A stretch of DNA of 64,000 nucleotides from an uncultured Bacteroidales bacterium (GCA_900316525.1 ONDF01000008.1:21077-85076); one strand, 5' to 3'. Counted from the stretch's first letter, positions 4,002-59,267 are shown. Made by a program: numbers and translations. Notes: generated by a model from the letters alone, not told the origin.

Positions 4002-4003
4002 AC

Positions 4004-4696: not shown

Positions 4697-4893
4697 TTCT
4701 ATCGTTGTTTGTGGTTTTTCACTGATGCAAAGGTCGGCATTCCCTTCCAAGGGTGCAAACAATTCCGAAAAAACCTTCTCGCAGACGCGTGTTTAATAGG
4801 TATTGAAAATCAGATAGTTACAAGAATCCCGATTTTGTGATTTCTCGCAACTGCCCGAAAACCTGCCGTTAACCACCGAAATCCGGTCGTTCA

Positions 4894-5583
4894 CTAACGC
4901 AGTCGATAGATGACCGGGAAGGTGTAGGAGACCTTGACGGCGCGGTCGCGCTGGCGGCCCGGCTCCCACTTCGGAGAGGAGGAAACGACCCGGACCGCCT
5001 CCTTGGCCAGCGACTCGTCCGGCGCGCTGAGGACCTTCACGTTCTCCAGGCGACCGTCCTTGCTGATCGTGAACTGGAGGGTGACACGGCCCTCGACGCC
5101 GTTCTCCTTGGCAATTTCCGGATACACCAGCTTGGAATTCACCCACTTCGAGAATTCGTTCGCGTCGCCACCGTTGAACTTCGGCTTTTCCTCGACGACC
5201 CCCACATAGATGACTTCCTCTTCCACTTCCTCCTGGATCACCTCCTGGTGGCTGTAGTCCCGGATATCCACGGGCACGTTCGTGTCGTCCAAGCTCTGGA
5301 AGTCCAGGTCCACGGTGACGTCGTTGTCGACAATCTCCAGCTCGTCCGACAGCATCGGCAAGGCAGGTATTTCCGGTGCAGGCGGGGGTGTATCCAGCGT
5401 GACAGCGAGGATGTCGTCTTCGTCGTCGATGACCGTATTCACCGGCAGCAGGGTCGCTTGCTGCACGCGGGTGGAGCTTTCAAGCCCCGCATAGACCACG
5501 AGGAGGGCCGCGATGAGCCCCAGCTCGGCAAAGATCAGCCGCTTGTTTTCGAGGCTGGCTTTTTCAGTTTTCTTGATTTCCAT
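4894..5583 (-). CDS. tonB: energy transducer TonB family protein (paralogue 2)
   Basis: Start chosen at MEIKKTEKASLENKR (ORF 4894..5616). Same architecture as paralogue 1, with a near-identical C-terminal domain (FNGGDANEFSKWVNSKLVYPEIAKENGVEGRVTLQF...). Confidence 0.85.
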   Translation of the reverse strand: MEIKKTEKASLENKRLIFAELGLIAALLVVYAGLESSTRVQQATLLPVNTVIDDEDDILAVTLDTPPPAPEIPALPMLSDELEIVDNDVTVDLDFQSLDDTNVPVDIRDYSHQEVIQEEVEEEVIYVGVVEEKPKFNGGDANEFSKWVNSKLVYPEIAKENGVEGRVTLQFTISKDGRLENVKVLSAPDESLAKEAVRVVSSSPKWEPGRQRDRAVKVSYTFPVIYRLR

Positions 5584-44280: not shown

Positions 44281-44715
44281 ATGTTTCGCGCTATGGCCAG
44301 GATCTACGTCGCCTCCAGCTGGAGGAACCAATACTTCCCCGAAGTGGTGAAACGCCTGCGGGAGGCGGGGCACGAAGTCTACGACTTCCGCAACCCGCCC
44401 CACGGCGGCGCCGGCTTCCATTGGACCGACATCGACCCGAAGGCCCCCGAGTGGACCTACGCCCAGTACGCCGAGGGTCTCCACCACCCCCTCGCCGAGC
44501 GCCAGTTCCAGGCCGACATCGACGCCCTCACCTGGGCCGACACCTGCGTCCTCGTCCTTCCCTGCGGCCGCAGCGCCCACACCGAAGCCGGCTGGATGGC
44601 CGGCGCCGGCAAGCGCGTGGTCGCCTACATCCCCGAAATGGTCGAACCCGAACTCATGTACAAGCTCTTCGCCAGCGTCGCAGGAAGTCTGGAGGAGTTG
44701 GTGGAAAAACTGTAA
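44281..44715 (+). CDS. nucleoside 2-deoxyribosyltransferase-like (NDT/DUF4406-like flavodoxin-fold) protein
   Basis: IYVASSW near the N-terminus, and ...DALTWADTCVLVLPCGRSAHTEAGWMAGAGKRVVAY matching the NDT-like pattern (delayed acidic residue + GK). The start may be 44293 (MARIYV). Confidence 0.45.
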   Translation: MFRAMARIYVASSWRNQYFPEVVKRLREAGHEVYDFRNPPHGGAGFHWTDIDPKAPEWTYAQYAEGLHHPLAERQFQADIDALTWADTCVLVLPCGRSAHTEAGWMAGAGKRVVAYIPEMVEPELMYKLFASVAGSLEELVEKL

Positions 44716-44728
44716 CCCTAACCCCAGC

Positions 44729-45184
44729 TCAGAACCCGGGCTGGGTGATGTGGAGGGTGCCGTAGAGGTGGTTGGACGTGTCCACGGTGATGCGGCCGGT
44801 GAAGGGGCAGGGGAGATTCTTGGGATTGAAGGCCTCGAACTCGTCCAGGGCGGCGCGGGGGATGTAGCCGATCAGCTTGCCATCGGCCCGGACCACCGCC
44901 TGCGCCCGCGGATCGTGCGCATTGTCCGGCTCCGCCCGGACCACCCCGCGGATGGGCCCGATATCCACCAGCGAACAATAGTACCGCAGCCCCGCGATCT
45001 CCGCCTCCATCGTCTTCCGCGCATTCGTCCGCGGCTCCGGCCTCGGCGCCGAAGCCGGCGCCTGCTTCTCCGCCAGATACTGCCGCTCGCTCCCGCTCCG
45101 CTGGTCATACCTCCGGTCATGGTCATCCCGGAAAATGAGGAACAGGGCAACAATCACAACAGCGGCAAGAACGAAGTAGAACAT
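44729..45184 (-). CDS. membrane-anchored HIRAN domain protein
   Basis: N-terminal TM helix MFYFVLAAVVIVALFLIF, with a C-terminal IAGLRYY...RAEPDNAHDPRAQAVVRADGKLIGYIPR (HIRAN signature). Confidence 0.7.
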   Translation of the reverse strand: MFYFVLAAVVIVALFLIFRDDHDRRYDQRSGSERQYLAEKQAPASAPRPEPRTNARKTMEAEIAGLRYYCSLVDIGPIRGVVRAEPDNAHDPRAQAVVRADGKLIGYIPRAALDEFEAFNPKNLPCPFTGRITVDTSNHLYGTLHITQPGF

Positions 45185-45214: not shown

Positions 45215-45562
45215 TTAATTCTTCATCAGAATCTTGTCGATAGGTTTTCCTTTCGCGAGGTCATCGACAAGCTTGTCAAGAATCCGGAGGTCGCGCATGC
45301 GAGGATCCTCGATCTCCTCCACCCGAATGCCGCAAATCCTACCCTTCACCAGGAACCGGGCCGGATTCATCCTAGGCGCCTGATCCAGGAACTCCCCATA
45401 CGTAGCCGAATCGCTACTCAACAGGGCCCGCAACTCCTCCTCGGAATAGCCCGTAAGCCACCCCGTCACCGCAAAAACCTCCCCCTCCGTCCGCCCCTTC
45501 CTCACCGCCTTGGCGATGAGCAGGGGAAACACCTTGGAGAATTTCATTTCGAATATGTCCAT
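45215..45562 (-). CDS. DUF2200 family protein
   Basis: 115 aa. MKFSKVFPLLIAKAVRKGRTEGEV...WLTGY...PRMRDLRILDKLVDDLAKGKP fits the DUF2200 pattern as I recall it. Confidence 0.6.
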   Translation of the reverse strand: MDIFEMKFSKVFPLLIAKAVRKGRTEGEVFAVTGWLTGYSEEELRALLSSDSATYGEFLDQAPRMNPARFLVKGRICGIRVEEIEDPRMRDLRILDKLVDDLAKGKPIDKILMKN

Positions 45563-45601: not shown

Positions 45602-46732
45602 TCAGTGGGATAGTTTGGCTATGGCAGGAAGGAACTTTTCACAGGTCTCTTCCACCTCTTTGATGATGGTCCGACAAGTCGATTCGGGGATGCGAATATC
45701 TGTGCCGGCTTTCAGCACCAAGTCGAAGCCCGGATTTCCGTTATAAAAAAGGGATGTGGCATGCTCGCCATTCGAACCCAAGGGAGAATAGGTGATATCA
45801 TAGGCGGGAGCTAGGGACCATTTCCCGTCATCGCAGAGGAAAGAGAAGTTCTTTGCATGGTCATCTTTGTTGACGGCTACGAGGTTCATCACCATCCTGC
45901 GGAACATCTCTTCCACCTGGTCCGGATCCTGAGTCAAGAATCCGGTCAAGGCCAGCAGATTGGTGTAGTCGACATCCTGCTTGCGGAAATCTGTTTTCAG
46001 AAGCGCGGCGGCCGTCACGACATGCCGTTTCTTCCCATCGGGCGCAAAGTCGAACCTTTCGATGGCGAAGTATCGGTCTTTCACCAAGCCGATCCGGGGA
46101 ATCGTGATTCCACACGCGCGAGCCGTCTTCATATACAGGAATTCGCTCTTGCCGATGTCCTCCGGGTCATACACATGGCGGAACTTGACGAGCCAGTGTG
46201 AGCCATCTTGGTTCCTCAGGGCGGTTTTTGGTCGGGCTCCACCGGAATTGGCGCTATTATAATACAGATACGACTCGTCTCCGGCCCCTTTTTCCGCGAG
46301 TACCTTCAAGGCCTCTTCTTGCAGATTATCCAATTGCGCGATGTCTTCCAGTTCCTTTTGGGCATGGAACCCTGTCATCATGGGAAGGTAAGTCAATGCT
46401 CCCATTCCTGCCGTTCCAATGATTGAGAGGCGCTGCAGGGGATTCAACTCAATGAGCGAGGTGTTTTGTTTTCGGAGCATCCGGTCAAGCAGATACAAGC
46501 CGTAGCCGTCCGGGAGGCTGTCCTCAAAGACGGCAAATCCTCCTCCGAACTTGTCTTTGTCGGCATAGAAAAGACCGCTTTGCAGGGGAAGTTCAGTAGG
46601 GGATAGGGAAAAACCGTTGGCAAGCCAACCCTTGTCATATTCAAATACGCAGACGCCATTGGCCGGGTCCCTCTGCAAAGTACCTACGGGCTCGTCCCGG
46701 AGCAGGACATTGATTTTCTTGATATCAATCAT
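45602..46732 (-). CDS. hipA: type II toxin HipA-family Ser/Thr kinase
   Basis: N-terminal coupling domain (INVLLRDEPVGTL...) and a catalytic loop NKDDHAKNFSF. 4-bp overlap with the upstream HTH gene. Confidence 0.9.
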   Translation of the reverse strand: MIDIKKINVLLRDEPVGTLQRDPANGVCVFEYDKGWLANGFSLSPTELPLQSGLFYADKDKFGGGFAVFEDSLPDGYGLYLLDRMLRKQNTSLIELNPLQRLSIIGTAGMGALTYLPMMTGFHAQKELEDIAQLDNLQEEALKVLAEKGAGDESYLYYNSANSGGARPKTALRNQDGSHWLVKFRHVYDPEDIGKSEFLYMKTARACGITIPRIGLVKDRYFAIERFDFAPDGKKRHVVTAAALLKTDFRKQDVDYTNLLALTGFLTQDPDQVEEMFRRMVMNLVAVNKDDHAKNFSFLCDDGKWSLAPAYDITYSPLGSNGEHATSLFYNGNPGFDLVLKAGTDIRIPESTCRTIIKEVEETCEKFLPAIAKLSH

Positions 46733-47040
46733 CGGCCGTTCTTTCTATTCAAGTTCTTGTTGATCGCCTCGAGTTCCCGGGAGGTCGAGTACTTGGTGTG
46801 GTTGAGCAGTGCGGCCATCTCGTCGAAGTAATCAAATTCGATGACAAGCCGACAGAAGGCTTCCAGTGAAATCTTTCCTGTTCTTTCGAACCGCTCTATG
46901 GTCGGGGCGGGAATGCCGGTAAGACCGGAGAGTGTCTTCCTGCTATACCCCTTCTCCAACCGTCTCGCCCGGCAATTCTGGGCCAACCGGTCCAAAAGCA
47001 TTTGTGGGTTTCGAGTATAATTATCTAGCCGATATTCCAT
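46729..47040 (-). CDS. XRE-family HTH protein, HipB-like antitoxin
   Basis: RRLEKGYSRKTLSGLTGIPAPTIERFERTGKISLEAF is an XRE-type HTH. The gene is translationally coupled to hipA. Confidence 0.75.
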   Translation of the reverse strand: MEYRLDNYTRNPQMLLDRLAQNCRARRLEKGYSRKTLSGLTGIPAPTIERFERTGKISLEAFCRLVIEFDYFDEMAALLNHTKYSTSRELEAINKNLNRKNGR

Positions 47041-47132: not shown

Positions 47133-47368
47133 CGGGAAGGTTGCCGGGCGGCGGGGCGGGCCTGCGGAATGACGGATTTCAGCTATTCGCGTAGGCGGGA
47201 AGGCGCTTGACCGCCGAACTCGCTCACTTAGTCCCGCAAGCGGGCCTAAGTAGCGCTCAAACAAACGGCGTCATCCCGTTCCGGGACCGCTGCCTTCCCG
47301 CCTGCTCACTAGCAGCTGAAATCCGGATTCCGCAGTCCCATCCCCGCCGCCACGATCGAACCTTCCCG
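47133..47368. repeat. long imperfect-palindrome (foldback) element, copy A, nested inside a 28-nt hairpin
   Basis: Nested inverted repeats run across 236 nt. The outer 18+10 nt are identical to the hairpin at 50189-50216, and the core 47161-47335 aligns with the reverse complement of 52345-52517. Confidence 0.85.
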
Positions 47369-47553
47369 AAAGGCCCATGAAAAGCGAGCGCGGACCAACC
47401 CGGCACCCACGCCTTCTATGGGCGCACGCCCCGCTTTAGGCCCATTCTAAGTGGCCTATAAAGCGGGCAAATGAGGCTCTCAGGCCGTAGAAAGGAAATT
47501 CTTCCGCGCTCGGTTTTTATGACGAGGGCGAGGGAGGGAAACAGGATTCAATG

Positions 47554-50118
47554 TTAGAACCCAATCTTCTTTCTCGGGGTGCGGTAGGTGGAGTTGAGGT
47601 TCACAAACTTGGTTTCGAGGTAGTCGCAGCCGTATTTCTCGTTGGAGCAGGCCAGGACGGAATAGGGATTGCCGTTGACGGCCTTGCCGGTCTTGACAAC
47701 CTTGATACGGCCGCAGTGGCATTTGGGGCAACGTTCCGGTTCCGGGATATCTGCGCTGGGCTTGATGTCCGGATTGAGGGTCGGGACAAACTCTAGAACA
47801 AACGGCGAAGGCTTGTTGATGTCATAAAGTACCCAAGTATGCTTCTTTGCCCGGGTGATGCCCACATAAAAAATGCGGCGCTCTTCGCTGAAAGCATAGG
47901 CGTCCGGTTCGCTGAGGACGTATTTGAGGATCGGACTGTCACTGATCTGAGAAGGGAATCCAATTACGCCGCTGTTGCAGTTAAGAAGAATCACGTAATC
48001 GCATTCGAGCCCCTTGGACTGATGGACAGTCATAAAATCCATCTTACGCCGACCATAACTAACGTAAACTTTATCCTTCGTGTCGTGAACCTTCAAGTCC
48101 GTGTTTTTAAGAACGTTCACGTCGAAATGATAGCGTCCTAACAAGAGAATCTCTTTGTCCGCAGGGATTTGATCTGCCAGATATTTGATGGTTTCAGCGA
48201 TGCTTTCATAGCCATCCGTTGACAAGAAATCAAGTTCCGTTTCCGCGTCAATACTGAAGGAACGGACACTTTTGACCGCTTGCTCCGGATTGGCAAGGAT
48301 GAACCGGGAAGATTCCTCGATCGCCGGCTCGCCAAATCGGTAGGTGGTTTCCATCAAGCATTTCTTGGTGAACCCGAAGAACTTTTCAAATTGCTTGAAG
48401 AGCGCCATATCACTCCCGGCAAATCGGTATATGGACTGCCAATCATCACCCACGCAGAACAACTTCGTGAGCGGTTTCTCGCGCCTGAGTGACTGTAGGA
48501 AGCGATACCTGTCCAAAGAGATGTCTTGGAACTCGTCGACCAGGATATAGTCATAGTCCGGCTTGTGCCCATGGTTGCACAAATCCGTCGCTTTGATGAT
48601 GGCGTCGGTAAAGTCTATCTCGTCAAACTCCTCTTCCAACTGCCGATACGCCTCCACATAGGGAGCAATGATTTCGTTAAGGATGAAACGATCGGGCCCC
48701 ATCGCGACTTTCTGACGGATATCATCCAAAGAAGCCCCTCTGGACTTCAAAAGGAAGATGAAAGATTTGAGCATCCCCAGGATGTTCTCCTCTTGCCGGA
48801 GCAATTCTCGGGAGACATCCTTGGATGTCGATTTGCTGAAGACTGCACCTAAATCCAGCAGCTGCTTCGAAAGCTTCTCAAAGACATCGCCGCGATGGAA
48901 ATCTGCGCTTGATGTCTCAATGAGAATCGTTCCGCGGTCGCTATGACATTTTCTTTTCCAACTTATTCCTTCCAGATATTCGATCTCATCGTAGAACGTG
49001 AACCACGGAGGGCAATGCCCATCTTCATTGACCGCAAAATGCTCCAGATAAACACGCTTCAGAGAGCCGTCCGGTCCATCGATGTAAATCGAGAAATCGG
49101 GTTTGTACTGCCGATAATTCGCATCCGCCGTATGGAACTCGTAGTTCTCTTCATAGCGGAACTTGACACCGCGCGACCCAAGAAAGTCACAGATTTGGCT
49201 CTCTTCATCCGACTTGCAGAAAACGGGCTTCCCATCCATATCCTTGAAAAAAGCCTGGATCCCTTGCTTCTGCCGATCGAGCATATAGGCCTCTCGAGAG
49301 GTATACTCGAACTGATCCTTCATCGTGTAACGGGACCGGATGATGTAATCGCCAATAGCTGTGCGGAAAGCCGGGCTCTTTTCGGACAATTTGTAATAAA
49401 CCTGCACCGGGAAGTCCTCGTCCGTAATCGAAGGCTTTTCCCCCGTGGCTTCGCCAATGATATCCAACGCCAGTTTATGGAAAGTCCGACACTTCAACTT
49501 TTTCTCCCCCAACCGCTCCGACAACGACTGCGCCGCCTTGCGGGTGAAAGTAATCAAAAGAATCTTCTCGGCCGGAACATGCTGCTTGTCGATGAGATAG
49601 CGCACCTTTCCCACCGTCGTCATTGTCTTCCCGCTCCCTGCACTACTGATTACCAGCACATTATCCTCCAGCGAAACCACCGCCTCCCGTTGCTGCGAAT
49701 CAAGCGGATAAGTCAACACCGTATCGAAATACTGCGCACAGGAAGAGAGCTGATTATCAACAAAATGACGATTATTGCTCTTCTTATGCTCCGTCGTGTC
49801 CGTCATCGCCGTGTGAAACCGACGGAACACATCCTTGTGCATAAACTCCTCAATCTCCTTACTATTGAGTACCGGTTGGACTTCCGAGTCTAAATCACGA
49901 TAATCCTCCAACAGGGACAATCGTTCGGTCTCGGTAATGTAGTGATTGAAATTGTATAGCGACTTGATCTCTGCAAACGCTTTTTCAACCTCCGGCTTCA
50001 ATCGGTTGAAGATTTCCAACCGCTCCTGACGCTTCTTCTCCTTGATCCGCGGCCGAACGGAAAGCATCAGCCAGAGGATGATGGCGAGAAAGGGGATTAT
50101 CAGGAGGAGCCAAAGCAT
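47554..50118 (-). CDS. HelD (helicase IV)-like UvrD/Rep-family SF1 helicase with N-terminal TM anchor and C-terminal C4 zinc ribbon
   Basis: Start set at MLWLLLIIPFLAIILWLML within ORF 47554..50223. Walker A SSAGSGKT, TFHKLA, Walker B LVDEFQDIS, VHQSKGLECDYVIL and YVGITRAK. Internal SDEESQICDFLGSRGVKFRYEENY...YKPDFSIY...YLEHF (helicase IV-type nuclease-like insert). C-terminal CPKCHCG...ACSNEKYGC. Confidence 0.85.
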   Translation of the reverse strand: MLWLLLIIPFLAIILWLMLSVRPRIKEKKRQERLEIFNRLKPEVEKAFAEIKSLYNFNHYITETERLSLLEDYRDLDSEVQPVLNSKEIEEFMHKDVFRRFHTAMTDTTEHKKSNNRHFVDNQLSSCAQYFDTVLTYPLDSQQREAVVSLEDNVLVISSAGSGKTMTTVGKVRYLIDKQHVPAEKILLITFTRKAAQSLSERLGEKKLKCRTFHKLALDIIGEATGEKPSITDEDFPVQVYYKLSEKSPAFRTAIGDYIIRSRYTMKDQFEYTSREAYMLDRQKQGIQAFFKDMDGKPVFCKSDEESQICDFLGSRGVKFRYEENYEFHTADANYRQYKPDFSIYIDGPDGSLKRVYLEHFAVNEDGHCPPWFTFYDEIEYLEGISWKRKCHSDRGTILIETSSADFHRGDVFEKLSKQLLDLGAVFSKSTSKDVSRELLRQEENILGMLKSFIFLLKSRGASLDDIRQKVAMGPDRFILNEIIAPYVEAYRQLEEEFDEIDFTDAIIKATDLCNHGHKPDYDYILVDEFQDISLDRYRFLQSLRREKPLTKLFCVGDDWQSIYRFAGSDMALFKQFEKFFGFTKKCLMETTYRFGEPAIEESSRFILANPEQAVKSVRSFSIDAETELDFLSTDGYESIAETIKYLADQIPADKEILLLGRYHFDVNVLKNTDLKVHDTKDKVYVSYGRRKMDFMTVHQSKGLECDYVILLNCNSGVIGFPSQISDSPILKYVLSEPDAYAFSEERRIFYVGITRAKKHTWVLYDINKPSPFVLEFVPTLNPDIKPSADIPEPERCPKCHCGRIKVVKTGKAVNGNPYSVLACSNEKYGCDYLETKFVNLNSTYRTPRKKIGF

Positions 50119-50188
50119 ATGTAAAGATAGTGATTTTGGATCCAAGAAAAGATTGCTACGCGGATAATGTCGATGTGCGGGGAAACCG

Positions 50189-50216
50189 CGGGAAGGTTGC
50201 CGGGCGAACCTTCCCG
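50189..50216. repeat. compact GC-rich hairpin (apparent empty site of element A) in the divergent intergenic region
   Basis: cgggaaggtt-gccgggcg-aaccttcccg: a 10-bp perfect stem with an 8-nt loop. Confidence 0.8.
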
Positions 50217-50234
50217 TAATCAATCTTTTTTTGC

Positions 50235-50242
50235 TATTTTTG
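50235..50242 (+). promoter_or_regulatory. -7 promoter box TATTTTTG for the DUF2075 gene
   Basis: Matches TAnnTTTG, 10 nt upstream of the ATG at 50253. Confidence 0.4.
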
Positions 50243-50252
50243 TAACGTCCCT

Positions 50253-52310
50253 ATGCCGCGTTACTATTATAGCGAATCGGTAGCCGAGTTTCTTGCTCGG
50301 CCGGCGGAGGCTATACTGGGGACCATGGATCAGGTGAATGAGTTTGACTTGACTATGGATCAGCGCAATGCGTGGTTGGAGGAGTTCGATATTATGAAGA
50401 GTGCGCTGGGAGCAATGGGGGAGGACGGTCAAATTCTGTTCGAATATACCATTCCGCGTCTAGGGAAACGAGTCGATGTTGTCCTCCTCATGAGGGGCGT
50501 GGTTTTCGCCATTGAGTTCAAGGTTGGTGCGGAGGCGTTCTTGGTCAATGACAAGGAGCAAGTCTGGGATTATGCGCTGGATTTAAAGAACTTCCACGAG
50601 GAGAGCCGAGATCGAGTCATCGTTCCAATTCTTGTGGCAACAGAGGCCCCCAAGCGGGATTGTTCGATGGGACAGGCCATCTTCAGCTATTACGATGACC
50701 ACGTCTATTATCCGCTATTCAGTAATGCGGATACACTGTTGCCCATCCTTCAGAGAGTCCTGAACGAAATAGATCCGCAACCGGCCTTGGACGCGCACGA
50801 ATGGACCTTCAGCCGGTATAGCCCGACTCCGACGATCATCCAAGCAGCATCTGCGCTGTATATGAATCACAGCGTTGCAGATATCACCAAGCATGAGGCT
50901 GATAAGGCTGGAATCGACAGCTGCACGGCGTTCATTTTGGACATTATCAAGCAATCGAAGGAAAACCACCAGAAGAGCATTTGCTTTGTGACCGGAGTTC
51001 CCGGCGCGGGGAAGACACTCGTCGGTTTAAACGTCGCAATTCAACAAGAAGAAGGCGATTTGGCGGTTTATCTTTCCGGTAACGGACCGCTTGTGAAAGT
51101 GCTTACCGAAGCTTTGGCTCGAGACAAGGTTCAGAAGGAGAAAGATCGCGGCCGCCGATGCACAAAGACCGAAGCAGAGCGTCAGGTAAGCCGATTTATC
51201 CAGATCATTCACCGCTACCGGGATAACATGCTGGGAAAGCTGAAGATGCCCATCCGAGACGGACAGATTGAACTTGATCCGGCAAAGATTTCCAAAGCGG
51301 CTGAAAAGAGCGCAGCGGAGGTGGAGAACGTAGCCATTTTCGACGAAGCGCAGCGAATGTGGGACATGCGCCATCTGAGTGCCTGGCTTGCCAGGAAGAA
51401 GGGCGTGAACGATTTCCCCATGTCGGAAGGAGAGTTCCTCATCTGGTCGCTTGACCAGCATAAAGACTGGGCCACCATCGTCTGCCTGGTGGGTGGGGGA
51501 CAGGAGATCAACTCTGGCGAAGGCGGTATTGGTTTGTGGATCGATGCGCTTAACCATCAGTTCCCCGACTGGCAGATTTACATCTCGAACCAATTGACGG
51601 AGAAGGAATATGCTGAAGGAAATGTCAGCGCCCTACTCGCAGAGAACCCCAACGTTCATCTCCGTTCTGACCTGCACCTTGCAGTCTCTCAGCGCTCTTA
51701 CCGGGCCGAGACACTTTCCTTATTTGTTCATCAATTCTTGGATCTGGATATCGCAGCCGCCCGAAAGACTTACGACGATATAAAAGACCGCTATCCCATT
51801 GTCCTCACTCGCGATTTAGCAAAGGCCAAAGCCTGGCTCCGAGAGCACGCGCGTGGCTCAGAGCGCTACGGAATGCTTGTCTCCTCCAAAGCTTTCCGCC
51901 TGAAGCCATTAGCCATTGATATTCGTTCTCAGGCCGATATTGTTCCCTGGTTCCTAAACCCTATCACGGACATTCGTTCTTCCCTCTTCCTGGAAGACGT
52001 CGCCACAGAATTCGATATCCAAGGCCTGGAACTCGACTGGACCTGCCTTGTCTGGGATGGCGACTTCCGCTACGATCCCTACCGCCACAGCTGGCAACAC
52101 TTCAACTTCCGCTCCGACCGTTGGCAAAACATCAACATTGCCGAAGGCCGCGCCTATCAACTCAACGCCTACCGCGTCCTCCTCACCTGCGCCCGTCAAG
52201 GCATGGTCATCTGCGTCCCTGAAGGAAACCCCGATGATGCCACTCGGTTGCCAGAGTTTTATGATGGGACGTATGAGTTGTTTAAGGAGTTGGGGTTGAG
52301 GGAGATTTAG
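50253..52310 (+). CDS. DUF2075-type protein: N-terminal PD-(D/E)xK-like nuclease module + SF1-like P-loop NTPase
   Basis: FEYTIPRLGKRVDVVLLMRGVVFAIEFKVG (D...ExK), Walker A GVPGAGKT and Walker B IFDEAQRMW, with a C-terminal helicase-like region. Confidence 0.8.
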   Translation: MPRYYYSESVAEFLARPAEAILGTMDQVNEFDLTMDQRNAWLEEFDIMKSALGAMGEDGQILFEYTIPRLGKRVDVVLLMRGVVFAIEFKVGAEAFLVNDKEQVWDYALDLKNFHEESRDRVIVPILVATEAPKRDCSMGQAIFSYYDDHVYYPLFSNADTLLPILQRVLNEIDPQPALDAHEWTFSRYSPTPTIIQAASALYMNHSVADITKHEADKAGIDSCTAFILDIIKQSKENHQKSICFVTGVPGAGKTLVGLNVAIQQEEGDLAVYLSGNGPLVKVLTEALARDKVQKEKDRGRRCTKTEAERQVSRFIQIIHRYRDNMLGKLKMPIRDGQIELDPAKISKAAEKSAAEVENVAIFDEAQRMWDMRHLSAWLARKKGVNDFPMSEGEFLIWSLDQHKDWATIVCLVGGGQEINSGEGGIGLWIDALNHQFPDWQIYISNQLTEKEYAEGNVSALLAENPNVHLRSDLHLAVSQRSYRAETLSLFVHQFLDLDIAAARKTYDDIKDRYPIVLTRDLAKAKAWLREHARGSERYGMLVSSKAFRLKPLAIDIRSQADIVPWFLNPITDIRSSLFLEDVATEFDIQGLELDWTCLVWDGDFRYDPYRHSWQHFNFRSDRWQNINIAEGRAYQLNAYRVLLTCARQGMVICVPEGNPDDATRLPEFYDGTYELFKELGLREI

Positions 52311-52314
52311 TTAG

Positions 52315-52547
52315 CTGTAACTCTTCGTCGGGGGCCGGTGTGCTCCTGCGGCATTCGGATTTCAGCGACAGGGGAGCAGGCGGGAAGGTGCGGTCCCGCA
52401 GGGATGACGCCGTTTGTTTGAGCGCTAGTTAGGCCCGCTTGCGGGACTAACTGAGCGAGTTTGGCGTCAAGCGCCTTCCCGCCTACGCGTACCGGCTGAA
52501 ATACGTCATGACGCAGGAGTGCACCGGCCCCCGGTGGGGGGTTACAG
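52315..52547. repeat. long imperfect-palindrome (foldback) element, copy B, inverted relative to copy A
   Basis: Outer stems ctgtaac/gttacag and cgggggccggtgtgctcctgcg/cgcaggagtgcaccggcccccg. The core 52345-52517 is the reverse complement of 47161-47335 with scattered substitutions. Confidence 0.85.
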
Positions 52548-52609
52548 CACTCTCTTTTCCTTTTTCTCGGTTTATTCTTGCGGGAATCATTTTATTTCGT
52601 AACTTTGTC

Positions 52610-53006: not shown

Positions 53007-53263
53007 GAGATGCCCGATCGGGTCGGGCATGACGGAGGCATCAGGTCGGGTCTGACGGGTCTGGCCGCGTTTACGCGAAATCGGCGTTTGGGAGGCTTCT
53101 GGGTGTAAACGCGGAGGGAGGAATGGCGGTTTTGGGCCAAAAGGGTGCCGCGTTTACACGTGGGGGGCTATGTGGGGCGGTTTTTCTGTAAACGCGTCCG
53201 GCAGACAACGCGAGATGCCCGATCAGGTCGGGCATGACGGTGGGGAACAGGTCGGGCATGACG
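53007..53263. repeat. cluster of REP-like palindromic repeats
   Basis: gagatgcccgatc(g/a)ggtcgggcatgacgg at 53007-53035 and 53212-53240, half-copies at 53042-53058 and 53248-53263, and two hairpin units gccgcgtttac(g/a)cg...gtaaacgcg (53064-53114, 53147-53196) between them. Confidence 0.7.
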
Positions 53264-53381
53264 TCCGCGGGCGGTCGGGCGGGGCGGTATCAGCCGGGCG
53301 GGGCGCTGATACTAATTTGACATTTTCTTGTAATATTTTGCTTCCCCGTAGGGGAACTTGTTGATTTCACAAAAAATTAAT

Positions 53382-53389: not shown

Positions 53390-53423
53390 TTTGTTTTGAT
53401 TTTGACCAAACAAGCTAGTGACC

Positions 53424-54011
53424 ATGAAAAAACTCATTGCTTTTTTGCTGTGTCTTATCGTCGTTGTGCCCGTCTTTGCCAAGAATGACAAGGACCGGAA
53501 CGAGTTTTCCGTTACGTATGGGCAGTTCACTGCTCCGCAGTTCGCCTATGTGATGGGCGAGGTGTTCGGGGTGATGTTTTCCTTGGGACATGCCTCGTTC
53601 GAGGATCCGCACATGTACGGCGCCGCGGGGATCGAGTATGTGCACTATACGAATGACTGGTTCGGCTTCGGCGGGACGGTCCTGTGCGATTATATGACGG
53701 CGAAGACTGTCAGTGTGGACAAGGACGGCAACAAGACGCCCAACGGCGATTTCAAGCTGGGCTGCCTGAGCGCGATGCCGCTGGTGAAGTTCGCGTGGCT
53801 GAACCGGGCGCACGTGGGCCTGTATTCCAAGCTGGCCGCGGGCGCGGGGCTGTTCTTCGCGAACGGCAGCGATGCGAAGGACAATATTTCGTTCGCCTTC
53901 CAGGCCACGCCCATCGGCGTGGACTTCGGCGGCGAGCAGTTCCGCGGGTTCGTGGAGGCCGGCGTCGGCTGGCAGGGCATCGTGAGCGGCGGTGTCCGCT
54001 GGATGTTCTAG
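53424..54011 (+). CDS. small outer-membrane beta-barrel (OmpW/porin-like) protein
   Basis: Signal MKKLIAFLLCLIVVVPVFA. Alternating hydrophobic beta-strand pattern, aromatic-rich, ending ...GGVRWMF. Confidence 0.65.
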   Translation: MKKLIAFLLCLIVVVPVFAKNDKDRNEFSVTYGQFTAPQFAYVMGEVFGVMFSLGHASFEDPHMYGAAGIEYVHYTNDWFGFGGTVLCDYMTAKTVSVDKDGNKTPNGDFKLGCLSAMPLVKFAWLNRAHVGLYSKLAAGAGLFFANGSDAKDNISFAFQATPIGVDFGGEQFRGFVEAGVGWQGIVSGGVRWMF

Positions 54012-54076
54012 TCCGACAGCGTTTGCAAAACCAAACCAAACCAAATACAAACCAATCAACCAATCAATCAACAACC

Positions 54077-57000
54077 ATGATTAAAATGAGAAAACTGTCT
54101 CAGCTGTTCGGACTGCTGGCGGCGCTTCTGCTCCTGCTTCCCGGACAGTCTTTCGCCCAGACCCTGCGCGTACAAGGCCAGGTGCTGGATGAGCTGGGAG
54201 AAGGTTTGATCGGAGCGGGCGTGGTCATACAAGGGACCACGACCGGAACGATCACCGACATGGACGGTAACTTCTCGCTGACCGTGCCCCAGGGGGCCAC
54301 GCTCGAGTTCTCGTGTGTGGGCTACAAGACCCTGGCGATCCCGGCGACGGCGAGGATGACTGTCAACATGGAACCCGACGCCGATGCCCTGGACGAGTCC
54401 GTGGTCATCGCGTACGGCCAGCAGAAGAAAGTGACCATCACCGGTGCGGTTTCGGCCGTGAGCGGTGAGGGACTGATGAAGTCCCCGGTGCCGAACGTCG
54501 CGAACGCCCTGCAGGGTAACCTCCCCGGCGTGTCCGCCGTGCAGCCTTCGGGTATGCCGGGCGCCGATGAACCCGTCATCCGCATCCGCGGTGTCGGATC
54601 CCTGAACAGCGCTGAGCCGCTCGTCCTCGTGGACGGCGTCGAGCGTTCCTTCTCGCAGCTGGATGCCAACGAAATCGAGAGCATCTCCGTCCTGAAGGAC
54701 GCGTCCGCGACCGCCGTGTTCGGTGTCCGCGGCGCGAACGGCGTCATCCTCGTGACCACCAAGCGCGGTTCTGTGGGCAAGGCCTCCGTGACCGCTTCCG
54801 CCAATGCCGCCGTGCAGACGATCTCGAAGTTCATCGACTTCGCCGATTCCTACACCTACGGCAAGATGTGGAACTACACCGCCATCACCGATGCGCTGCC
54901 GATGACCCAGTGGCCGGCCTCCCCGACCATCGCCGACTACACCCCGTACGCCGACACCGGCATCCGGTTCACCCAGGACGTCATGGAGCACTTCCGCCTG
55001 AACGACATGCCCCGCACGTTCCCGAACATGGACTGGATCAAGTACATCATGAACGACGCCGCGTGGCAGGAACAGGCCAATGTGAACGTGAACGGCGGTA
55101 CCGAGCGCGTCCGCTACTTCGTGTCCGCCGGCTTCCTGAACCAGGACTCCCTGTTCAAGACCTTCTCGGACAACAAGAACGAGACCTTCAACTTCCAGCG
55201 ACTGAACTACCGCGCGAACCTCGACATCGAGGTCTCCAAGCGCAGCCAGCTGTCCATCACCCTCGGCGGCCGTATGCAGAACCGCAACACGATGGGTGGC
55301 GGTGAAGGCTTCCTGTTCCGTTACCTGCAGGGCGCGACGCCCTACGCCGGCAGCGGTATCGACGAGGAAGGCCGCCACATCATCGCCGACGAGACCATCG
55401 TCGGCCAGTTCGACCGCGACGCCCTCGACAACTACTACGACCTCGGATACCAGCTTGAAAGCACCAACGTGCTGAACTTCGACATCCAGTACAAGCTGGA
55501 CATGGGCTTCCTCACCCAGGGTCTCGACTTCAAGGTGAAGGCCTCCTACAACTCCGAGTACACCGCCCGCAAGAACCGCCAGAACGGCTACGGCAACGGC
55601 GTGAAGTACGTCGCCACCCTCGTGGACGGCAAGGAAGTCCTCCGCAAGGAGAACATCACCTGGCCGCTTCCGTACAGCGAGGCCAAGTGGGGCAGCCGCA
55701 ACTGGTACACCGAAGCCAGCCTCAACTACAACCGCCGCTTCGGCAAGCACAACGTGGGCGCCCTCCTGCTCTACAACCAGAGCAAGACCTACTACCCGTG
55801 GGACTCCAACAACAGCCTGTACCAGTCCATCCCGAAGGGCTACGTCGGCCTCGTCGGCCGCGTCACCTACGACTACGACACCAAGTACCTGCTGGACTTC
55901 AACATCGGCCGCAACGGTTCCGAGAACTTCGCCCCCGGCAAGCGCTACGGCACCTTCCCGTCCGTCTCCCTGGGCTGGATCCCCTCCATGGAACCCTGGT
56001 GGCAGCCCATCGGCAACGTCATTTCCTACCTGAAGCTCCGCGGCTCCTACGGTATCGTCGGTAACGACAACACCAACGGCGCCCGCTTCCTGTACCTGCC
56101 CGGCGCCTGGCAGTTCTACACCGGCGCCACCACCGTGAACCCGCAGAACCGCGGCGCCAACTTCGGTACCTCCGGCGGCTGGCTGCAGGCCGTCAAGGAG
56201 CTCACCACCGGCAACCCGAACGTGACCTGGGAGACCGCGACGAAGATCAACGTCGGCGCCGACGTCACCTTCTTCAGCCGCCTCCACGCCTATGTGGACT
56301 TCTTCTGGGAGGACCGCAAGGATATCCTCGTGTCCAACGCCAACGCCCTCTCCGCCGTCACCTCGCTGCCCGCCAGCTACGTGAACCAGGGCCGCGTGAA
56401 GAACCACGGCTTCGAGGTCACCCTGAACTGGGAGGACCGCATCGGCAACGTCCATTACAACATCTCCCCGAACGTCTCCTTCGCCCGCAACCAGGTCATC
56501 GAGATGCTCGAGGTTCCGCCGATGTACGACTACCTGAGCCGCACCGGCCTCCCAGTGGGCCAGCGCTTCGGCTATGAGCTGTTCGAGTTCTACCAGCCCG
56601 GCACCGAAGACCGCTACCAGGACGCCTACGGCAAGCCGATGCCCGACCAGAACATCGACCTCCGCTATGGCGACTGCGTCTATGTGGACCTCAACGACGA
56701 CGGCATCATCGACCAGAACGACCAGCACCCGATCGGCTACACCGACAACCCGGAACTGACGTTCTCCCTGAACACCGGCATCCACTACAAGGGCCTCGAC
56801 TTCTCGATGCTGTGGACCGGCGCCGACCACGTGAGCCGCACCCTGAACGGCTACTTCCGCGACCAGTTCGGTTCCACGAACACCTCGGCCCTCACCCAGT
56901 GGGTCGCCGACAATTCCTGGACCACCGACAATCCGGACGCCACCCTGCCGCGTATCTCCTTCACCAACCGCGTGCACAACAACCGCGACTCCCAGGCGTG

Positions 57001-57235
57001 GATGATCAACTCCCGGTACGTCCGTCTGAAGAACGTCGAGCTCGGCTACACCTTCAACAAGCCCAAGTTCATGCCATTCTTCAACTACATCCGCGTCTTC
57101 GCCTCCGGCCAGAACCTCCTGACCTTCTCCACGTTCGACGGCAACGACCCGGAAGCCCCGGGCTCCGGCCTCGACTTCGGCGTGCGCTACCCGATGACCC
57201 GCGTCGTCAACATGGGCGTGCAAGTTAACTTCTAA
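54077..57235 (+). CDS. SusC/RagA-type TonB-dependent transporter (full length)
   Basis: True start MIKMRKLSQLFGLLAALLLLLPGQSFAQ lies within ORF 53684..57235. LRVQGQVLDELGEGLIGAGVVIQGTTTGTITDMDGNFSL, VVIAYGQQKK and IRGVGS...LVLVDGVER...VFGVRGANGVILVTTKRG. Paralogue of 16397..19579. Confidence 0.95.
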   Translation: MIKMRKLSQLFGLLAALLLLLPGQSFAQTLRVQGQVLDELGEGLIGAGVVIQGTTTGTITDMDGNFSLTVPQGATLEFSCVGYKTLAIPATARMTVNMEPDADALDESVVIAYGQQKKVTITGAVSAVSGEGLMKSPVPNVANALQGNLPGVSAVQPSGMPGADEPVIRIRGVGSLNSAEPLVLVDGVERSFSQLDANEIESISVLKDASATAVFGVRGANGVILVTTKRGSVGKASVTASANAAVQTISKFIDFADSYTYGKMWNYTAITDALPMTQWPASPTIADYTPYADTGIRFTQDVMEHFRLNDMPRTFPNMDWIKYIMNDAAWQEQANVNVNGGTERVRYFVSAGFLNQDSLFKTFSDNKNETFNFQRLNYRANLDIEVSKRSQLSITLGGRMQNRNTMGGGEGFLFRYLQGATPYAGSGIDEEGRHIIADETIVGQFDRDALDNYYDLGYQLESTNVLNFDIQYKLDMGFLTQGLDFKVKASYNSEYTARKNRQNGYGNGVKYVATLVDGKEVLRKENITWPLPYSEAKWGSRNWYTEASLNYNRRFGKHNVGALLLYNQSKTYYPWDSNNSLYQSIPKGYVGLVGRVTYDYDTKYLLDFNIGRNGSENFAPGKRYGTFPSVSLGWIPSMEPWWQPIGNVISYLKLRGSYGIVGNDNTNGARFLYLPGAWQFYTGATTVNPQNRGANFGTSGGWLQAVKELTTGNPNVTWETATKINVGADVTFFSRLHAYVDFFWEDRKDILVSNANALSAVTSLPASYVNQGRVKNHGFEVTLNWEDRIGNVHYNISPNVSFARNQVIEMLEVPPMYDYLSRTGLPVGQRFGYELFEFYQPGTEDRYQDAYGKPMPDQNIDLRYGDCVYVDLNDDGIIDQNDQHPIGYTDNPELTFSLNTGIHYKGLDFSMLWTGADHVSRTLNGYFRDQFGSTNTSALTQWVADNSWTTDNPDATLPRISFTNRVHNNRDSQAWMINSRYVRLKNVELGYTFNKPKFMPFFNYIRVFASGQNLLTFSTFDGNDPEAPGSGLDFGVRYPMTRVVNMGVQVNF

Positions 57236-57247
57236 TGCGGAACGAAT

Positions 57248-59248
57248 ATGAAAAAGATATCGAATCTCATCCTGGTGCTGGGCATCGCGTCCGCTTTCTG
57301 CTTCTCCGCGTGCGTCGACAAGTTCGCCGTCGGTGACGCCTTCCTCGAGAAGGCCCCGGGCGTGGACGTCAACATCGACACCGTGTTCACGAGCGCAGAA
57401 TACACCCGCAATTTCCTGTGGAGCGCCTATGGCCAGCTCTACTGCACCTATACGTCCGGAAACATGATGAACGGCGCGCCGATCGACGTGCTTTCCGACT
57501 CCTATCATTGCTACGTCTCCTGGGGCGGCCCCAAGCAGAGCTACTACCCGGGACTTCTGACCGAGGACGCCCAGGATACCGAGAACGGCAACTTCCAGGG
57601 CAAGTTCTCCTACTCCACCAAGACCGGCGGCCTGAACGCCGACGCCGGCGGCCGCGTCTCCATCTACGAGACTGTGCGCAAGTGCTGGCAGATCATCAAC
57701 AACATCGAGCGCGTGCCCGACATGTCCGACACCGAGAAGAGCCGTCTCCGCGGCGAGGCCTACACCATCATGGCCAGCCGTTACTATGACGCGTTCCGCA
57801 GCTTCGGCGGCCTCTGCCTTGCCCGCAAGGACTACGAGGTGGGCGAGAACCACACCTCCGGCCGCGCCACCGCGATGGAGACCGTCGAGTTCATCGACTC
57901 CCTGATCGTGTGCGCGATCAACGAGCCCGGCTTCGTGTGGAACATCTCCAACGCCGACCAGGGCCAGTGGTCCGGCCGCCTCACCCGCGCCTCCGCCCGC
58001 GCCCTGCGCGCCAAGGTGTGGATGTTCGCCGCCTCCCCGCTGTTCAACAACAAGGAGCCCTATATGGAGTACTCCGCCGACAAGGTGACCGAGTTCACCA
58101 ACATCGAGCACGTGTGGTTCGGCAAGGAGGATCCCACCCTGTGGAACCGCTGCCTCCAATACTGCGAGGACTTCTTCAATGACAACGCCGCGAACGGCAA
58201 CTACTACGCGCTGGTCCAGCCTACTTCGCAGGACGAGGCCGGTTACCGCCGGGCCTTCCGCCGCGGCTACCGTTACCGCAACGATGCGACCAACCACGAG
58301 AAGCTGTTCGACGCCCACCCGACCCTCACCCTGTCCGACGGCGGCTATGGCTGGGGCTGGAGAGGCTTCGCCCTCGACTGCCTCCGCCAGGGCGGCGCCG
58401 TGCCGACCAACGAGCTGATGGAATGCTTCGGCATGGCCGACGGCCGCAACTTCCCGTACGAGAACCTCTACGGCGCCGGCAAGAACCCGCAGGGGATCGA
58501 CATCTTCGCCGACCGTGACCCGCGCCTGTACGAGACCATCCTGGTTCCCCGCCACAACCTGCCCTCCGGCTTCGACTATGCCGGTAACTCCTACATGGAC
58601 AACTGGGTGGGCGGCGCCTTCGAGTACAACAGCAACTTCGGCAACAAGGACGATGTCGCCTCCGGCTACTGCAAGTTCAAGTGGCTGCTCGACTACTACG
58701 GCGGCAACCGCTATGACGACGAGTACATCGGCGTGCCTTACATCCGCCTGGCCGAGATGTACCTCATCCGCGCCGAGGCCAAGGCCGAGACCGGCGACCT
58801 CCGGGGCGCCCTGGACGACATCCACGTCGTGCGCAGCCGCGTCGGCCTGGGCCGTCTGGAAGTGATGAACCCGCAGCTGAACCTCACCACGAACAAGGAG
58901 AACCTGATCAACGAGATCCTCCGCGAGCGCAACTGCGAGATTGGCGCCGAGTGTGGCGACCGCCTTTACGACATGGTCCGCCGCAAGCGTCAGGACCTGT
59001 TCACCAAGCCGCTCCACGAGATCCGCATCTATCGCCTCGACGCCAATGGCAACCGCCTGACCGAAGGAAACCAGAGCTGGGATCCTGCCACGCCTTGGCC
59101 CAAGTTCGAGTATGAGAAGCCCCAGATCGTCAACGGCGCCCGCCGCTGGTGGGAGCCCGGCTTCTGGACGAACAAGTGGTATCTGGACCCGGTGTCCCGT
59201 ATCGAAGTGCAGAAGGGGTACGGCCTCACGCAGAACCCCGGTTGGTAA
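57248..59248 (+). CDS. SusD/RagB family lipoprotein
   Basis: Lipobox CFSACV. C-terminal WYLDPVSRIEVQKGYGLTQNPGW. Confidence 0.9.
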   Translation: MKKISNLILVLGIASAFCFSACVDKFAVGDAFLEKAPGVDVNIDTVFTSAEYTRNFLWSAYGQLYCTYTSGNMMNGAPIDVLSDSYHCYVSWGGPKQSYYPGLLTEDAQDTENGNFQGKFSYSTKTGGLNADAGGRVSIYETVRKCWQIINNIERVPDMSDTEKSRLRGEAYTIMASRYYDAFRSFGGLCLARKDYEVGENHTSGRATAMETVEFIDSLIVCAINEPGFVWNISNADQGQWSGRLTRASARALRAKVWMFAASPLFNNKEPYMEYSADKVTEFTNIEHVWFGKEDPTLWNRCLQYCEDFFNDNAANGNYYALVQPTSQDEAGYRRAFRRGYRYRNDATNHEKLFDAHPTLTLSDGGYGWGWRGFALDCLRQGGAVPTNELMECFGMADGRNFPYENLYGAGKNPQGIDIFADRDPRLYETILVPRHNLPSGFDYAGNSYMDNWVGGAFEYNSNFGNKDDVASGYCKFKWLLDYYGGNRYDDEYIGVPYIRLAEMYLIRAEAKAETGDLRGALDDIHVVRSRVGLGRLEVMNPQLNLTTNKENLINEILRERNCEIGAECGDRLYDMVRRKRQDLFTKPLHEIRIYRLDANGNRLTEGNQSWDPATPWPKFEYEKPQIVNGARRWWEPGFWTNKWYLDPVSRIEVQKGYGLTQNPGW

Positions 59249-59267
59249 TCTATAACACTGTACGAAT

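Follow-up and report, generated by a model that had tools for sequence, protein, structure and literature searches.

A candidate defence hot spot from a rumen Bacteroidales bacterium: a Nhi-like nuclease-helicase with an optional helicase IV-family neighbour

A stretch of 64,000 nucleotides (nt) from an uncultured Bacteroidales bacterium (GCA_900316525.1 ONDF01000008.1:21077-85076), hereafter the window, carries two divergently transcribed genes for P-loop proteins of helicase superfamily 1 (SF1), namely a helicase IV-family gene at 47554-50118 on the minus strand and a DUF2075 gene at 50253-52310 on the plus strand. By its sequence, the latter is a member of a named, experimentally validated defence family, termed Nhi-like or PDC-S41, and the former belongs to no named system. 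The reading that we favour, with moderate confidence, is that of a defence hot spot in which an autonomous Nhi-like nuclease-helicase is accompanied by a separately inserted, optional helicase that probably assists DNA-targeting defence enzymes. The locus would be a small, horizontally acquired hot spot in a rumen Bacteroidales chromosome, made up of two separate single-gene cassettes, each with its own promoter-like motif, within a block delimited by hairpin repeats of ~235 nt. In short, the defence family is a known one, its facultative partner is new, and the system is of no categorically new kind.

The two proteins of the divergent pair

The 685-amino-acid (aa) product of the DUF2075 gene matched the PADLOC profile PDC-S41 (PDLC05014) with an E-value of 2.6e-261 and 866.6 bits (residues 1-685 against profile positions 1-653 of 657) and Pfam PF09848 (DUF2075, renamed SLFN-g3_helicase) with an E-value of 4e-68. 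It consists of an N-terminal PD-(D/E)xK nuclease-like domain (aa ~55-130) and an SF1 helicase domain of the DUF2075, or Schlafen group 3, type (aa 241-656). The Walker A motif GVPGAGKT (248-255) and the DEAQ motif (364-367) are intact, and E64, D75, E88, and K90 were found to be invariant across diverse homologues, including a Nhi-like protein of Bacillus and the DUF2075b paralogue; this bears out the N-terminal D...EFK motif of the PD-(D/E)xK type that a first-pass annotation of the window had pointed out. A tblastn search of plasmids led to proteins of the Bacillus cereus group with 27% identity over residues 21-678 (E=8e-58). The matched Bacillus albus plasmid protein is itself a PDC-S41 member (1e-114), and its gene has SIR2, HEPN, and a true Nhi/AbiO gene (Nhi profile 2e-171) as island neighbours. 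Nearly identical to this plasmid protein is SG141, a 611-aa "Nhi-like" protein of B. cereus FSL H8-0482, which is marked "v" (verified) as a single-gene system (Millman et al. 2022, bioRxiv 10.1101/2022.05.11.491447); against the window protein, SG141 gave an E-value of 1e-38 over the first 399 aa printed. Phages that escaped Nhi-like had lost a DNA methylase, suggesting that methylated DNA sensitises the phage. Because of the PDC-S41 match, the homology to SG141, the invariant catalytic residues, and the intact Walker A and DEAQ motifs, the DUF2075 gene is placed in this validated family. Protection from phage by a single gene was shown for the Bacillus member and is predicted for the window protein, which may translocate by means of ATP and so locate and cleave phage DNA that is modified or replicating.

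The window protein and SG141 are homologous over their full length and share the N-terminal PD-(D/E)xK domain, the DUF2075 helicase domain, the D...ExK and Walker motifs, and a match to the whole of the PDC-S41 profile. They differ in that the window protein exceeds its counterpart by ~70 aa, its helicase domain bearing insertions at aa ~295-355, comes from a Bacteroidales host, and carries a substitution, R646C, discussed below; in addition, the helicase IV-like neighbour has no counterpart in the verified Bacillus construct. A more distant comparison is that with Nhi of Staphylococcus epidermidis (SERP2475), a nuclease-helicase with a PD-(D/E)xK nuclease domain (Bari et al. 2022) from which phages are reported to escape via mutations in core replication proteins. 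Both are PD-(D/E)xK nucleases fused to an SF1 helicase that overlaps DUF2075, and both belong to families of single-protein defence, but their sequences do not match significantly, and the PADLOC Nhi profile (PDLC02372) matched the window protein at residues 235-265, the P-loop, only (E=8e-4, 16 bits). The name "PDC-S41" was not found in the literature searched. Homologues with 53-97% identity occur mostly in rumen and gut Bacteroidales and also in Victivallales, Fibrobacter, Alphaproteobacteria, Clostridia, and Coriobacteriaceae.

The AlphaFold2 model of the DUF2075 protein, made from a shallow alignment, is poor (predicted local distance difference test score, pLDDT, of 62.3), with a beta-beta-beta-alpha-beta order at residues 60-129. 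Neither Foldseek nor a sequence profile run against the PDB gave a significant match of the nuclease domain to any solved nuclease. Foldseek with the model returned weak Upf1/helicase matches and one weak McrBC match only, and the search of the whole protein against PDB sequences yielded nothing useful. The N-terminal profile built from diverse homologues gave a sub-threshold match to the uncharacterized protein 3dnx (E=0.35), in which D...ExK is aligned to RVD...ECK.

One residue sets the window protein apart from its relatives. The codon TGC at 52188-52190 (plus strand) encodes Cys646 in helicase motif VI (LLTCARQG), at a position that is Arg in 118/118 matched close homologues and 61/61 matched loci, is encoded by CGC in the related locus L001 (loci compared in this study are given as L-numbers), and is also Arg in the Bacillus Nhi-like protein (TRGR). 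Cys646 is the sole departure from a consensus of at least 97% in all 685 residues. In SF1 helicases such as PcrA and UvrD, the motif VI arginine contacts the ATP gamma-phosphate. R646C could abolish ATPase activity and could equally be explained as a sequencing artefact. It is possible, though less likely than not, that the window holds a decaying or inactivated copy, in which the Nhi-like gene is ATPase-dead via R646C and the locus no longer defends, or that an assembly error is involved; this explanation is compatible with the others considered here. Its strength lies in the position of the one consensus deviation, within a motif (LLTRAR) whose Arg extends to the Bacillus protein. Against it, the reading frame is intact and the other substitutions are ordinary, one C-to-T difference may reflect an error or a minor variant when the sequence is derived from a metagenome, and the finger arginine may be either of the two in TRAR.

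The second gene of the pair encodes an 854-aa helicase of the helicase IV family, an SF1A (UvrD-like) protein with Pfam matches to UvrD-helicase (5e-40), AAA_19, and UvrD_C. Its open reading frame (ORF) extends over 47554-50223, and a start at 50223 (TTG) was rejected on the basis of homologue lengths, which favour 50118. Since homologues (more than 100, of 851-855 aa) begin at the MLWLLL methionine, the gene is taken as 47554-50118, and the spacer to the DUF2075 gene is 134 nt. The best NCBIfam match is helicase IV (NF008276), with 365.1 bits, under the equivalog cut-off of 543. With E. coli HelD, the protein shares the pre-helicase helical region, domain 1A, and domains 2A/2B, at 30% identity over residues 58-232 and 34% over residues 482-774. 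It differs from HelD in a 250-aa insert (residues 233-481) that has no HelD counterpart, in a predicted membrane helix in place of the N-terminal domain, for which no Pfam match was found, in a C-terminal zinc ribbon, and in being apparently mobile and resident in defence islands. The YKPDF...LEHF segment, which had been described in the first-pass annotation as an insert of the helicase IV type, lies outside the regions aligned with HelD and resembles T7 endonuclease I instead. The N-terminus bears a conserved hydrophobic helix (aa 1-21) followed by a basic stretch, together predicted to form a membrane anchor. All helicase motifs are invariant, and no residue departs from the consensus of at least 97% among 120 homologues. 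The C-terminus (aa ~797-833, CPKC...CSNEKYGC; 47620-47730, minus strand) carries a C4 zinc ribbon like that of topoisomerase I; in the window protein it was recognized by motif only, its Cys residues are all invariant in the helicase alignment (A2), and a distant homologue in L017 matches PF01396 (Zn_ribbon_Top1) at 3e-8. The AlphaFold2 model is poor (pLDDT 58.5); the alignments used as input for the two models (A1 and A2) were shallow, with 77-97% identity.

The insert contains a domain that resembles the PD-(D/E)xK enzyme T7 endonuclease I (gp3, a Holliday-junction resolvase, PF05367) at aa ~296-412 (48883-49233, minus strand). Evidence for this comes from Pfam PF05367 (E=0.02, 15 bits, below the cut-off of 29), BLASTP against T7 gp3 residues 16-58 (E=6e-6), hhalign (probability 89.5% over 42 columns), and the search of an insert profile against the PDB, in which T7 endonuclease I was the only match (E ~0.014-0.02). 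AlphaFold2 gave an alpha-beta-beta-beta-alpha-beta order at residues 304-403 with low confidence. The N-terminal half of the insert aligns with gp3 16-58, so that the conserved E306 and D341 fall on E20 and D55, both of them catalytic. Next comes an (I/L)E motif, with the conserved E359 (LEHF) at E65 and the invariant F361 at the K67 position, both placed by motif position and spacing. The full catalytic set (E20, D55, E65, K67) appears to be incomplete, the lysine position being Phe. Unlike T7 endonuclease I, the window domain is embedded in a helicase and has EHF in place of ETK, and the similarity is short and moderate. It is likely that the insert has lost catalysis, and because of the invariant Phe at the K67 position, it may bind branched DNA rather than cut it. 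The protein is read as a 3'-5' helicase, predicted to be membrane-anchored, with a putative branched-DNA binding module.

In PADLOC, the helicase gave only generic UvrD-type matches (RTasHel, GajB). Of the two halves of the pair, for which the first-pass annotation had found no named system, the DUF2075 half is therefore accounted for by PDC-S41 and the homology to SG141, whereas the helicase half is not. Gabija (the OLD-family nuclease GajA with GajB) was considered because it likewise places a UvrD-like SF1A helicase beside a nuclease-bearing P-loop protein; it was rejected, since no GajA (ATPase-Toprim/OLD) was detected by PADLOC among the seven island proteins, the partner here being a DUF2075 protein, and the similarity to GajB is of a generic UvrD level, with partial profile matches of at most 126 bits that are no better than those to other UvrD-family proteins (PcrA, 144 bits). 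No paper linking helicase IV with phage defence was found in searches that, for "HelD", were flooded with the ordinary verb "held". As far as could be found, there is no earlier description of the helicase family, of its promiscuous linkage, or of the organisation into hairpin-bounded cassettes treated in the next section.

Hairpin repeats and a three-state junction

The block that holds the two genes is bracketed by quasi-palindromic repeats of ~235 nt in inverted orientation, the left copy at 47133-47368 (inverted-repeat pairs I1, I2, and I4) and the right copy at 52314-52548, with a predicted fold of ~-150 kcal/mol and further copies in L001, L002, and L121. The nhmmer profile identified only two full copies in the window. 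Among 176 sequences (175 loci and the window), the repeat was found in 16; across 13 copies, compensatory changes occur at 13/45 predicted pairs, and the pairing of the long stem is kept. Rfam returned no family at gathering score anywhere in the window, and the hairpin corresponds to no curated RNA. Inverted hairpin pairs surround single or double cassettes in ~15 loci. They bracket DUF2075 alone in L172-L179 (copies at 6246-6477 and 8579-8805 in L172), the helicase alone in L166 (1221-1440 and 4116-4342) and partially in L118, another helicase together with DUF2075 in L001, and a 338-aa gene, DUF2075, and the helicase in L167 (4303-4512 and 10558-10750).

The same chromosomal slot was compared in close relatives. 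Loci with a 97%-identical DUF2075 orthologue (P0001) share the neighbourhood of the window, with a nucleoside-deoxyribosyltransferase-like (NDT-like) gene, hipBA, DUF2200, DUF2075, an outer membrane protein gene, and SusC. The partner position is empty in L172-L178 and is occupied in L001, from the metagenome-assembled genome (MAG) RUG352, by a different SF1 helicase of 896 aa with a DUF2726/DUF559-type nuclease domain, whose best PADLOC matches are Mokosh MkoC/MkoA. Genes of this MkoA/C-like helicase family are also neighbours of DUF2075 in L012 and L014, and L072 has one elsewhere. Both insertions are at the same point, with the final bases of the left hairpin (...AACCTTCCCG) on one side and the promoter region of DUF2075 on the other, and three states of the junction can be compared: empty (L172, 5916-6516), with the MkoA/C-like gene (L001, 7110-9800), and with the helicase IV-like gene (window, 47368-50206). 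In the window, the helicase cassette has a 3' flank at 47368-47553 (minus strand). A blastn alignment of window 47133-47517 with L001 6729-7110 gave 82% identity, so that the first ~150 nt of this flank (47368-47517) are common to the 3' flanks of both cassettes; the segment is missing from the empty-slot locus L172. Judging from these related contigs, the helicase was probably inserted at the locus only in the lineage of the window.

The 134-nt spacer (50119-50252) contains promoter-like motifs and a collapsed mini-hairpin of 28 nt (50189-50216), which consists of the two termini of the 235-nt element and forms the right end of the helicase cassette. On the helicase side, the motif TATCTTTA is present at 50122-50129 (minus strand), and TATTTTTG lies at 50235-50242 on the DUF2075 side. 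Upstream of the DUF2075 ATG, TTTTTTGCTATTTTTG is kept in all five contexts compared, the remaining spacer being unrelated; TATCTTTG precedes the helicase ATG in L086 and L167, and a TATCTTT(G/A) motif does so in the window, L086, and L167. The -7 promoter consensus of Bacteroidetes is TAnnTTTG, and we take both spacer motifs to fit it, which suggests separate promoters for the two genes. The possibility that the pair moves as a conserved unit including its spacer was rejected, as only the promoter motif of ~16 nt is common to the spacers in the window, L081, L086, and L167, which are otherwise unrelated.

The simplest reading of the window is that of two hairpin-bounded single-gene cassettes side by side. 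That the helicase forms a separate cassette is supported by its occurrence alone between hairpins in L166, the junction exactly at the hairpin end, the mini-hairpin between the genes, and the other helicase in the slot of L001. That DUF2075 may act on its own is suggested by the motif kept in the contexts examined, its position alone between hairpins in L172-L178, and the 44/45 loci without a helicase that are described below.

The hairpin could be an attC-like recombination site, a terminator, or an element resembling a miniature inverted-repeat transposable element. As a tentative and rather speculative proposal, rumen Bacteroidales might possess a hairpin-bounded, integron-like cassette system in which single defence genes swap at the same junction, the helicase being a promiscuous accessory or stand-alone gene for Nhi-like, Type III restriction-modification (R-M), and Type IV restriction. 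Resemblances to the attC arrays of integrons are the single-gene cassettes bounded by covarying imperfect palindromes, the alternative cassettes at one junction, and the degenerate mini-site between cassettes. The window elements differ in being longer, at ~235 nt, and in that the genes have promoter-like motifs of their own; mobility, moreover, is deduced here solely from the comparison of related contigs. No integrase turned up in the window, where no systematic recombinase search was made.

Linkage of the two families and alternative explanations

The frequency of pairing was assessed in two sets of loci. The DUF2075-anchored set comprises 80 loci from species-representative genomes (53-97% identity), 45 of which have enough flank, and the helicase-anchored set comprises 80 metagenome loci that give 39 dereplicated contexts in which the upstream sequence was long enough. 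Of the 80 DUF2075 loci, only L017, from a Prevotella MAG, has a homologue of the helicase within 10 kb, which gives 1/45 for the loci with enough flank. DUF2075 or DUF2075b is located immediately upstream of the helicase, on the same strand, in 10/39 helicase contexts, which corresponds to a binomial p of ~1.6e-5 even at a background of 5%. The adjacency recurs in three arrangements, namely divergent, adjacent co-directional, and as a four-gene operon, in ~14 independent contexts. Targeted look-ups showed the divergent pair in at least four flanking contexts (the window, L081-83, the truncated L086, and L167), and the operon of DUF2075, a MazG-like gene, a second DUF2075, and then the helicase is present in L084, L085, L091, L095, and L098. 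In all paired cases seen, DUF2075 is on the 5' side of the helicase. The spacing of co-directional pairs is usually 0-34 nt, with 92 nt in L140 and 315 nt in L136, and tight same-strand junctions, often of 0-13 nt, were also found in distant lineages that have no hairpins, including L017 with its 28%-identical helicase.

Linked cases are scattered across the helicase tree, and the identities of the two proteins are uncorrelated (Spearman rho ~0; the Mantel p of 0.03 is apparently driven by the outlier L017). For instance, L090 and L102 share 97% identity in DUF2075 and 76% in the helicase, and the corresponding values for L081 and L090 are 53% and 81%. Given the recurrent pairing alongside mostly unpaired loci and the lack of co-divergence, the association is real, repeatedly re-created, and facultative on both sides. 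Of the two-gene defence cassette proposed in the first-pass annotation, the residence in an island and the recurrent adjacency stand, and co-occurrence exceeds chance, whereas the notion of an obligate unit is contradicted by the pairing frequencies, the lack of co-divergence, and the empty slot in close relatives. The answer on co-inheritance is similarly divided: adjacency is enriched and defence genes are neighbours, but most members of each family are unpaired and the trees are incongruent.

The commonest neighbour of DUF2075 is a NUDIX gene encoding 125-168 aa (PADLOC PDC-S07, E=2e-51), which occurs in 16-17 loci in all and immediately downstream of DUF2075 in ~12/80 genome loci; examples are L019, L020, L024, L032, L038, L064, L076, and L080, where it lies just 3' of the match at ~12.1 kb. 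Other recurrent neighbours are the MazG-like gene with a second DUF2075, Vsr, and the NDT-like gene. The latter, with 64-85% identity, was found at variable positions in 14 loci fetched for either anchor gene; in L012 and L059, for instance, it directly precedes DUF2075, and in L017, L091, and L092 it lies 3' of the helicase. Together, the NUDIX, MazG-like, and NDT-like neighbours suggest a theme of nucleotide-pool enzymes. The MazG-like pyrophosphatase (109 aa) and the shorter second DUF2075 (589-621 aa, with its own D...ExK) form a recurrent module by the Nhi-like gene (L084 at 3115-5210, L085, L091, L095, L098, L006, L007, and L013). A similar MazG-like and DUF2075 pair, SG192 of Bacillus firmus, showed no defence in an assay (Millman et al., bioRxiv 10.1101/2022.05.11.491447).

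Another set of defence genes surrounds the helicase, comprising a Type III Mod/Res pair directly upstream, a Type IV restriction enzyme (mREase_IV) with NUDIX, a ThsA-like SIR2 gene, RhuM (PDC-S05), PDC-S01, and PDC-S07. A human-gut helicase clade (58-60% identity) is found directly 3' of Type III Mod/Res or of what is left of the Res C-terminus (208 aa), often with RhuM (PDC-S05) next (L145, L160, and L161, genes at ~3.0-8.0 kb; L146, L153-L156, and L159). In 19 loci, the helicase is followed on the same strand by a protein of ~230 aa (L096, 2914-3606; L095, 5512-6204; L136, 10536-11210) that begins with a membrane helix, continues with a low-complexity middle rich in Ser and Ala, and has a conserved domain at its C-terminus; this protein has no Pfam or PADLOC match and is absent from the window. 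The flanks of the helicase differ in nearly every locus. Because of the defence neighbours and the highly variable flanks, both genes are defence-island residents, and neither looks like a housekeeping gene. A phage origin was rejected, as the only matches of that kind are unannotated "Bacteriophage sp." faecal contigs with 28-44% identity. The recurrence of the helicase beside Nhi-like/DUF2075, Type III R-M, Type IV restriction, and SIR2 genes makes an accessory role the most likely one: the helicase may unwind or present DNA intermediates as an optional helper and would most likely not be an obligate subunit.

These data also bear on the remaining explanations. According to the first, which we consider doubtful, the pairing is a coincidence, in that unrelated island genes were caught by the same hairpin-bounded hot spot and do not interact functionally. 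This would agree with the occurrence of each gene alone between hairpins (L166, L172), with a slot by DUF2075 that can be empty, HelIV-filled, or MkoA/C-like-filled, and with the incongruent phylogenies and very diverse neighbours of both families. However, the hairpin is present in only 16/176 sequences, yet tight junctions exist in distant hairpin-free lineages, and a chance association would not be expected to leave DUF2075 always 5' of the helicase in the pairs seen or to reach 10/39, far above the 5% island background.

It is unlikely that the two genes are an obligate two-gene defence system, acting as sensor and effector or as one complex and inherited as a unit. The same divergent pair in at least four flanking contexts, the co-directional near-overlapping pairs and four-gene operons elsewhere, and the significant enrichment would all be accommodated by such a system. 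They are outweighed by the low pairing frequencies in both sets, the 97%-identical orthologue that has no helicase at the same locus, the absence of co-phylogeny (rho ~0) together with three gene orders, the verification of the Bacillus family member as a single gene, and the promoter-like motif and solitary hairpin-bounded occurrence of each gene. Housekeeping DNA repair or recombination by a HelD-like RecF-pathway helicase with an accessory NTPase is very improbable: the homology to the E. coli helicase IV core is real and helicase IV is the best NCBIfam match, but the score is 365 against a cut-off of 543 bits, no HelD N-terminal domain was found, the guanine-plus-cytosine (GC) content is ~12 points under that of the host, the flanks are variable and hold defence genes, close relatives differ in whether they have the gene, and homologues occur in at least six phyla-level groups at 53-60% identity.

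Several points weigh against the hot spot of an autonomous Nhi-like protein and an optional helicase. Owing to R646C, the DUF2075 protein of the window is possibly non-functional. The loci were chosen for carrying one of the two genes, so that the association of hairpins and cassettes is ascertainment-biased. Same-strand pairs in which a DUF2075-family gene precedes the helicase, often with reading frames that overlap or nearly do so, occur in ~10 lineages, which suggests, at least in those lineages, a tighter coupling than that of an optional accessory. Both AlphaFold models are poor, and claims at the level of the fold rest on sequence profiles and motifs. Finally, the experimental support comes from the Bacillus member, the Bacteroidales members and the helicase family being known from sequence.

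Surroundings of the block and significance

The first-pass annotation was accurate on the layout of the locus, that is, on two divergent SF1 P-loop genes around a spacer of ~130 nt (134 nt after correction of the helicase start), bracketing structured repeats, for which inverted orientation and covariation at 13/45 pairs were found, and a low-GC block beside hipBA. The window has ~62-64% GC outside the island, and the block at ~45-53 kb has 48-54%. On the left, within this low-GC island, the cassette block is adjoined by a hipBA-type toxin-antitoxin pair (45602-47040, minus strand), a neighbour outside the divergent pair that consists of a HipA of 376 aa (45602-46732) and a helix-turn-helix (HTH) antitoxin of 103 aa, with Pfam matches to HipA_C (7e-46) and Couple_hipA (2e-18) and weak HTH matches. 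hipBA is kept at 93% nucleotide identity in L001 and L172, and a Fic/HTH gene is found in its place in L179. Further to the left are the NDT-like gene of 144 aa (44281-44715, plus strand; weak, sub-threshold Pfam matches), a HIRAN-domain gene (44729-45184, minus strand; Pfam), and a DUF2200 gene (45215-45562, minus strand; Pfam). The HIRAN protein and HipA are weak matches to components of the PADLOC candidate PDC-M03 (M03B, 1.6e-6; M03A, 3.5e-5), and HIRAN homologues also adjoin DUF2075 in L004 and L179 and the helicase in L167. No tRNA or tmRNA that could mark an island boundary was found in the window.

On the right, a partly palindromic motif of ~30 nt (GAGATGCCCGATCGGGTCGGGCATGACGG and variants) occurs three times in non-coding sequence at 53007-53279, upstream of a small outer-membrane-like gene (53418-54011). 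It is followed by a 1762-aa ORF rich in Gly, Ala, and Val (54068-59356, minus strand), antisense to a SusC-like gene, which is almost certainly a high-GC artefact and no gene.

With the DUF2075 half, the Nhi-like family validated in Bacillus is extended to Bacteroidales that abound in rumen and gut, as well as to at least five further phyla-level groups, which matters for the reading of gut defensomes. The other half of the pair represents an uncharacterised helicase family that combines a helicase IV core with a zinc ribbon, a predicted membrane anchor, and an insert resembling a junction resolvase, and that is found repeatedly 3' of DNA-targeting defence genes. Should this helicase act as an accessory, it would exemplify a helper module common to unrelated immune systems. 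Furthermore, the locus with its three states (empty, helicase A, and helicase B) and hairpin-defined junctions provides a concrete, testable case of defence-gene exchange at a hot spot.

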